From Heptranchias perlo (lineage: Eukaryota): a DNA stretch of 64,000 nt. Positions 28,276 to 30,396 of this stretch are shown here, one piece after another; positions within the stretch are counted from its first letter, which is position 1, and each line of letters opens with the position of its first letter. Made by a program: the position numbers and the translations under genes. The DNA lies in contig NC_090329.1 of the NCBI RefSeq assembly GCF_035084215.1, positions 23,994,001 to 24,058,000 on the forward strand. Direction: 5' to 3'. The notes beneath the pieces are model-generated. The model was not told where the DNA came from, ran no database searches, and saw nothing but the letters and a program-made list of their open reading frames with translations.

Positions 28276-30220
28276 ATTTAATGTTTTTTTGTGTGGGGAA
28301 AAGACTATCAGAGACTCATTAATGTCTTGATTTATGTTCATTTTTTAAAATGTATTTATGGTGCATGCACTATCGCTATTAAAAAAAGGACATGAAAAAG
28401 TAAGCAAGGCTTTTGGTGGGCTTTTAATGTGGCTGTCAAGCCACCCATTGCTTGGTATGGTGATCCTCAATCGCTAGGTAGAGTACCCTGATGGCGCCCA
28501 GATCTCCCACTTCCCTGCCATGCCTGTTGGCTCAGTCTCTCCAATAGAGAAGCTCACATGCTTAATTGGCTGTCAGTCATTGCATCTGGCTCTTTTCCCT
28601 TCCCTCTGTGACTGTGTGTGCTGGGTTAGGTCCTAGTGGGAGTCTGCTGCTGTGGCAGGAGGGAGACTTCAAGCTCATTATTTTAACAGCATTATCACCC
28701 ATGTTAGTTAGTCACACTGTGATCAAATCCTTTATATTAACGGCAGCTCTAGGCATTAAGAGATTAGATTGGAGGGAGTAACCCAATCCCGAGCAGTTTA
28801 AAAAGCATTCACATTCCTGTAGTAGACCATATGACTTGTGCTCTCAACACAAAACAAAGACAGACTTGATGGGCCGAATGAATAGATTGGTCAATAAACT
28901 TGCTCACTTAAAACTGCTTAATGGGCTAAATTCCCCACCCATTCATAGCAAATGGGGGGAAAATCCAGGCCATATTCAAAGAGAACACCCCAACTTAGTA
29001 AGTCTACTTGATTTTATAAGAGCGATTGCACACTCATTTTAACTACATGGTTCTAACTAACAGCTTTTCCCTAAACTATTCTCAATTGTTCAAATTTTTC
29101 CTGTTGCTCCTCCTGCTCACCTTTGGCATCTGGTTCATGTACTGTCACAAGGTGGCAGGGAATCCAAAAGTGCTGAAGCTGCACCGAGCCTACAGCGGTG
29201 AGCTCCTGGTTTGTAAATGCATTGACTGAATAAATAGATCAAGCCTCAAAGTTGTGTTCATGGGGCCTACTGTATAAAGTATGATGGAAAATAGGAAACC
29301 TCATTCTGTGCTTTGGGCCAAATAAATCCCTGGTGTAGGCTTGAGGATTATGACGATCAATCTAAGCATGGGGCTCAATGATCACTGCAACCTAATACTA
29401 TACAAGATCACTGGAACTCAATGAGAGAATGAGGAGGTCCAGGAACAGTAGGTGTTGGTTATCCTACATGCAGTCTGAAGGGAATCCAAAGAGGAAAAAG
29501 GCACAGGCATTGATTAACAGTATAGTATTTAATGTATACTATAGAGATGTTTGCGGTCTTGTGTGGGGCTTGAGCTCCATGCTACAAATAGGGGACAAGG
29601 TTTGGCTTGGAAAATAGATTTAAATATATCAATTTACATGGCAATACTATTCATAGAACTTCATAGCTTTACAGATAACCCATTATTTGTTTTACCATAG
29701 ATTGACAGCACACTCAATTCAGGCCTTACAAGCCCTGTACATTACAGCCAGACTCATTAAAAACGGGTATTCCGTCAGTAGAGTTGACTGCATGAACCCA
29801 CTTTATATTTGAGAGCTACCGGATATACATTTCTCCCCCCTCCCTTCCTGAAATCATTGGCTCATCGTTGCAACACTGGCCTCACAGGTACCAAAACCTT
29901 AAAGTTACCATTATTCATGTGTGCACTTGACAGTAAGTGTCAGCAGGCCAATCAACAGTAGAAGCATCACAGCCAGCCAAGCATCCTCACTCAATGACCA
30001 TACACACACACTTCCAGCAGGGGTTACTGAATAGCATTGCTGGTCAATTTTCTTTTCCGGGGGCACGGAGGCCATTTTTGAAACACTCCTGCAGTTGACC
30101 CTGTAGGAGATCAGCTAACCTACACAGACCAAGGATGAAAACTGGGTCCTCCTTGGTCTATGTAATGATAGAAGGCAACTTACTGGGCTGTTAGGGGGAA
30201 CGACTGCATATTCATTTAAC

Positions 30221-30309
30221 GAATCTTACAACACCAGGTTATAGTCCAACAGTTTTATTTGAAAATCACAAGCTTTCGGAGCTTACCTCCTTCGTCAGGT
30301 GAGTGAAGG
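30221..30309 (-). mobile_element. 89-nt PLE-derived insertion consisting of a hammerhead plus 3' tail
   Basis: Near-identical to 60785-60870; flanked by gcatattcatttaac (30206-30220) and gcatattaatttaac (30310-30324). Confidence 0.85.
30266..30302 (-). ncRNA. Minimal type-I hammerhead ribozyme motif
   Basis: ucac-CUGACGA-a-ggag(guaag)cucc-GAAA-gcuu-guga. Confidence 0.85.
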
Positions 30310-30396
30310 GCATATTAATTTAACAAGTTAGATGAACAGTGTTCCTTTCGTAAATAAATCCACAACAATTCAGCACATTCTGGAAGTAGCTCTTAC

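Follow-up and report, generated by a model that had tools for sequence, protein, structure and literature searches.

A short hammerhead-bearing insertion in a shark intron is probably a dead-end, truncated arm of an abundant Penelope-like element

The hammerhead motifs of Penelope-like elements (PLEs) have been described as lacking helix III and needing dimerisation; most are single and probably come from truncated PLEs, some form close opposite-strand pairs, and a single motif showed no cleavage (PMC4209133). An optional tail of 30–40 bp has been published for PLEs (PMC8557442; PMC11167929), and its occurrence together with an inverted partner arm is also in print (PMC8557442; PMC3846280). 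A CX2-5CxxC linker between RT and EN marks the Neptune and Nematis clades (PMC8557442). As described in PMC11167929, both target strands are cut and extended, RT initiates without target homology at two internal start sites that bound the tail, and the hammerhead is dispensable. Retrozymes consist of tandem units with a hammerhead in each and are expressed as circles (PMC7229834; 10.64898/2026.07.22.740005). The literature already describes solo pLTRs, inverted arms and tails, and also single minimal hammerheads left by truncated PLEs.

The insert analysed here lies in a stretch of 64,000 nucleotides of Heptranchias perlo DNA, referred to as the window. It is very probably a real, young and clean insertion that reproduces exactly part of the terminal repeat, hammerhead included, of an abundant PLE, and the likely dead-end outcome of a single short event of target-primed reverse transcription.

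The insertion and its empty site

The insert (30221–30309) reads on the minus strand and consists of a minimal hammerhead motif plus 45 nt, 89 nt in total. It is a single pLTR arm, 5′-truncated and tail-less, and is identical (0 mismatches) to eight other fetched copies whose upstream reach varies from 62 to 2,100 nt. The two copies of the TSD, which carry no strand, flank it at its 3′ end (30206–30220) and its 5′ end (30310–30324; the final base of this copy may equally belong to the element) and agree at 14 of 15 positions. Such agreement was reached by 9 of 3,096,841 sampled 15-mer pairs in the window at a spacing of 60–399 bases. The initial annotation had described an 89-nt insert between near-identical 15-bp repeats, composed of a hammerhead motif and about 45 nt of PLE 3′ sequence and ending short of the 3′ end of two longer copies. 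Each of these points holds, the missing 3′ portion amounting to 44 nt.

The insert lies in an intron and is sense to the host gene. A host exon part on the minus strand (30397–30479) ends at 30397 with a GT donor that opens this intron, and 87 intron bases follow before the insert begins, in agreement with the strand and distance first annotated. The 27 residues of the exon match the Pfam ERO1 profile weakly (E 0.067, profile positions 328–344 of 354). An AATAAA on the minus strand at 30254–30259, a candidate pLTR poly(A) signal as read from the sequence, is sense to the host gene; at about 140 nt into the intron it may also serve as an intronic poly(A) site.

In a related organism (organism C), a 302-nt contig of depth 4.45 from run X13 aligns to 29984–30205 and 30310–30378. 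It joins both flanks and omits 104 bases (89 + 15), the element together with the repeat at 30206–30220. Because it skips the element plus one repeat, the site appears to have been empty before insertion, as judged from this one low-depth contig; the other runs from the same organism (X10–X12) did not cover the site. No empty allele was seen in two DNA runs from the same sample as the window.

On the stretch 30210–30302, the organism C contigs (X10–X13) lie on the flanks and give zero depth on the PLE part at 85% likeness; those of another relative, organism B, do give depth there at the same likeness. The PLE family may be patchy among relatives, and absence from contigs proves nothing.

The flank at the 5′ end of the insert resembles the TATA region of the element about 20 nt further upstream, which could allow a 16-nt microhomology deletion; the insert might then be what a later deletion left of a longer PLE insertion. 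This is highly unlikely, since an intact repeat directly borders the insert on either side, the insert carries no mutations relative to its sibs, and the site of the relative is empty in the one organism C contig. The view that this is a discrete insertion and not an eroded relic, as first annotated, is accordingly borne out by the TSD and by the empty site. The annotation had pointed to relatives as the place where an empty site, or instead a longer PLE at the orthologous locus, might be found; organism C has the former and holds no PLE there (one contig).

The parent element and its hammerhead

Judged by its sequence features, the parent is a Neptune/Nematis-type PLE. The insert chains collinearly to a long ORF-bearing arm (L169), and no base separates it from long copies of the coding lineage. 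L169 contains an 893-codon open frame in which Pfam detected RT alone (RVT_1, E 7.5e-10). Its protein (P0001) has a CX4CxxC linker, of the form that marks the Neptune/Nematis clades, and a GIY-YIG-like domain, read by eye, with two Cys between the GIY- and YIG-like motifs. The ATG of the parent ORF directly follows the tail. The locus thus combines the features of a truncated EN+ PLE: a pLTR belonging to an element with RT and GIY-YIG, an optional tail, a TSD with an empty site, and a minimal hammerhead.

Genome copy numbers were taken as matches to exact sequence patterns, which numbered 12,057 for the core, 25,183 for the 3′ part, 277 for the first 38 nt and 332 for the tail–ORF junction. 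The PLE end carried by the insert therefore has at least 25,183 copies. For analysis of copy ends, 419 arms from fetched loci were used; the sample is small and position-biased, being mostly the first matches listed on the first contigs. Locus ends cut off 9 arms.

The window search found two longer tailed copies, one of about 0.5 kb from the same PLE group (60741–61267, minus strand) and one of about 1.07 kb from a related subfamily, which runs into the ORF end (598–1671, plus strand). Both extend 44 nt beyond the 3′ end point of the insert, which lacks these bases because the optional PLE tail is absent. Beside the 5′ end of the copy at 60741–61267 lies an inverted internal RT-coding piece (61270–61385) and not a pLTR end; a junction at about the same RT position occurs at another locus (L141). 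Among the long copies of loci L001–L190, the stretch from the TATA-like box to the hammerhead varies greatly between subfamilies (34–48 nt, CTCA-type repeats). The hammerhead core, an AAGCTT palindrome and the tail are kept, and stem II varies with its pairing retained.

The motif itself (30266–30302, minus strand) is a minimal type I hammerhead, read by eye from the sequence against the descriptor in PMC4209133 and supported by structure evaluation. It contains a 4-bp stem I, the core CUGACGA, an extra A, a 4-bp stem II with a 5-nt loop, and GAAA; a palindromic AAGCUU stands where helix III would be. Cleavage is predicted between 30270 and 30269, that is, 40 nt inside the insert. In structure evaluation, the structure as drawn scores −9.3 kcal/mol, with stems I and II formed in the 40-nt motif, and the monomer has no stable helix III. 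Free folding of 30206–30324 was no better than that of shuffled sequences (z 0.62), and an Rfam search of the window at the gathering threshold returned no match, the hammerhead included. The hammerhead is most simply a passenger, and alone it is predicted to cleave poorly. Hammerhead cleavage was also considered as the source of the 5′ end and rejected, as ends do not pile up near the cleavage site (4 of 97 within 17–26).

Ends of the element copies

The 3′ ends of the 419 arms are bimodal, with 214 tail-less, 194 tailed and 11 other, and the two classes end about 38 nt apart. Among 77 inverted pairs (loci L001–L190), 73 combine a tailed with a tail-less arm, and an adjacent TSD of 11–19 bp (mode 12, 72% AT) accompanies 62. 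In some pairs, such as L137, the junction spacer sits in the tail-less arm, an arrangement that cannot arise by simple fold-back of a single cDNA. This suggests that each cut strand is primed separately, from a start site of its own. In 59 of 60 pairs the tail-less end falls at positions 27–39 (mode 33). That of the insert is at position 27, where the target resembles the element continuation at 5 of 7 bases. Over all pairs, agreement between the element continuation and the first six bases of the TSD averages 3.3 positions as compared with 1.9 in the control, a figure inflated by TSD extension.

These data are consistent with the following origin of the insert. At an AT-rich site, the GIY-YIG nuclease would have made a cut in each strand with a stagger of about 15 bases, and RT would have started at the inner of two internal RNA start sites, the one yielding tail-less ends, probably helped by a match between target and RNA at 5 of 6 bases. 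RT would then have stopped just past the hammerhead, where copies of the parent element very often stop, and the cDNA would have been joined to the host end; the usual second arm, inverted and tailed, was presumably not made or not kept.

The stop falls in a hotspot. Samples drawn irrespective of the 5′ end gave 159 arms, of which 10 stop too early to count; of the remaining 149, 65 stop 49–68 nt upstream of the anchor, a 20-nt span at the 5′ edge of the hammerhead; 13 others stop at 34–48 nt, 10 at 69–140 nt and 20 at 141–400 nt. The per-base rate in the hotspot is 18.6 times that in the next 332 nt, a ratio that is descriptive because the arms of one pair are not independent. The hotspot was present in the first sample (32 of 97 arms at 49–67) and appeared again in an independent stretch (at 50–68, 31 of 55); by eye, 4 of 30 ORF-bearing copies also start there. 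Among 100 arms sharing the first 38 nt of the insert, 14 stop within 62–67 nt of the anchor and 86 go beyond the hotspot. A continuous spread of 5′ endpoints, which the initial annotation had named as the sign of ordinary truncation, is thus not what is seen.

The most likely cause of the stop, given roughly an even chance, is that RT ran off the 5′ end of a transcript from a putative TATA–Inr promoter in the terminal repeat. Of 59 long copies, 56 have a TATA-like hexamer 34–48 nt ahead of the hammerhead core; TATA + 30 nt falls within the hotspot, and in the subfamily of the insert TCACT is found 20 bases after the TATA-like box. The TATA-to-start and AATAAA-to-cleavage spacings used are the customary ones. 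Both RT start sites are downstream of the AATAAA. In a polyadenylated unit transcript they would therefore be present only close to the 5′ end, and cDNAs primed from them would run off after about 90 and 130 nt, in keeping with the observed sizes. By analogy to retroviral strong-stop DNA, we tentatively propose, with somewhat less than even confidence, that the many arms of 90–135 nt, the insert included, are integrated 'strong-stop' cDNAs, primed internally close to the 5′ end of a unit-length transcript and run off at a transcription start coinciding with the 5′ edge of the hammerhead.

Several observations count against run-off. The 5′ end of the insert lies some 5 nt ahead of the predicted +1, and the hotspot is 20 nt wide. 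The positions of 5′ ends are flat against the TATA spacing of the subfamilies (rho 0.16 and 0.03, n 65), and an untemplated G, as expected from a cap, was found at 0 of 6 host-joined ends. A promoter without TATA and with an intron after the start has been described in D. virilis (PMC2377424). Of 59 non-C matches, 41 have a G just ahead of the predicted +1, which was also considered as a cap signature and rejected, since in the 30 loci read this G nearly always belongs to the inverted partner. Genome counts of patterns spanning the boundary (1,630; 1,111 + 59; 277; and 375 for the TATA–Inr stretch) were not used as a test, the subfamilies being unmatched.

The same stub could instead owe its 5′ end to the structure of the hammerhead region, on which RT may stall or within which the cDNA may be joined, a serious possibility to which we give a little under one chance in two. 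As many as 55 of the 65 hotspot ends are inverted junctions, the recurrent ones using a 5-nt inverted match beside stem II, and self-priming at palindromes has been proposed (PMC3846280); the missing cap G and the lack of a shift with TATA spacing fit as well. However, the remaining 10 hotspot ends are joined to host DNA, and host-joined ends show the hotspot too, with 10 inside its 20 nt and 10 spread over the 332 nt that follow. Overlaps at pair junctions mostly span no more than a few bases, and a stall would be expected before the structure and not after it.

If the strong-stop proposal is true, the pLTR would work like a retroviral R–U5, with a start site, a poly(A) signal and a priming site beyond; a template jump or tandem read-through RNA would be required to produce long copies, and the strong-stop intermediate would have left its record in thousands of stubs in the genome.

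Clustering of 5′ ends at the hammerhead edge could also be expected if the insert belonged to an independent, non-autonomous family of ribozyme retroposons of about 90 nt, retrozyme-like, transcribed as units and moved in trans by PLE protein. The clean TSD and empty site would fit such a family, as would a near twin (L272), a tail-less solo arm of 104 nt between perfect 14-bp repeats, and vertebrate retrozyme families derived from pLTRs and as small as 51 bp have been reported (10.64898/2026.07.22.740005). Nevertheless, this is largely refuted and very improbable. The insert has no private bases, and a lineage of its own with diagnostic bases and shared ends, as in a SINE-like PLE derivative, was not found among the fetched copies. 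The ten TSD-flanked short solo arms measure 81, 89, 104, 124, 129, 129, 131, 139, 166 and 174 nt, that is, 81–174 nt where a retrozyme would have a fixed unit length. They come from 249 short arms, 43 of which join host DNA and 10 of which have a TSD, with no shared unit length. TSD-flanked single arms (14 of 65) reach up to 2 kb, and many long 'single' arms have no detected TSD because long extents are approximate. None of the 10 host-joined hotspot arms (among 149) is both tail-less and TSD-flanked. The TATA-like box lies outside the insert, and the ends of the insert do not coincide with the cleavage site.

Tandem structure is absent as well. Where a retrozyme has tandem units with at least two hammerheads in the same sense, the locus has one motif and no tandem unit, with host DNA on its flanks; because of this single hammerhead, the insert does not fall under the retrozyme definition. 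A lone hammerhead in mid-element would split the insert in two and not release a unit-length circle. At another locus (L189), a tandem or retrozyme structure was suspected and not found. The initial annotation had proposed a family of tiny ribozyme retroposons moved by PLE RT/GIY-YIG and a survey of the endpoints and TSDs of its copies. A PLE-made insertion stands, whereas a separate family does not, given the lack of private bases and the ten lengths; the 419 fetched arms have clustered 5′ ends but no shared solo unit.

Comparison with described systems

The insert itself is ordinary, one among tens of thousands of truncated PLE ends. The population pattern could matter for understanding how pLTRs, tails and inverted arms of PLEs arise. 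The pairing of tailed with tail-less arms and the sharp 5′ boundary at a predicted promoter offer cheap, direct tests of the PLE replication cycle. The counts of pair asymmetry (73 of 77) and of the 5′-end hotspot come from the present analysis. Neither a 5′ hotspot nor its strong-stop reading was found in the openly available literature searched, PMC2377424 included.

Non-LTR retrozymes (PMC7229834; 10.64898/2026.07.22.740005) resemble the insert in being small, non-coding and related to pLTRs, with a type I hammerhead and large TSDs, but they consist of tandem units and the insert is one truncated arm. The single minimal hammerheads of truncated PLEs (Cervera and de la Pena, 2014; PMC4209133) share the motif design; stem II is 4 bp here. 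PAc, a Poseidon PLE of the green anole (Frangieh et al., 2024; PMC11167929), likewise has an AT-rich target and a tail set by two start sites. It belongs to another clade than the parent PLE, and its ORF starts inside the hammerhead and not at the tail end as here. The 5′-truncated pLTR copies of EN+ PLEs (PMC8557442; PMC3846280) share the minimal hammerhead and the tail on one end only, together with an inverted 5′-truncated partner, TSDs of 8–15 bp and solo pLTRs. In a rotifer pLTR, a TATA box stands 20 bp before a TCACT Inr-like motif, a spacing equal to that found here (PMC8557442; PMC3846280). From these published copies the insert differs in being a single, tail-less arm of 89 nt.
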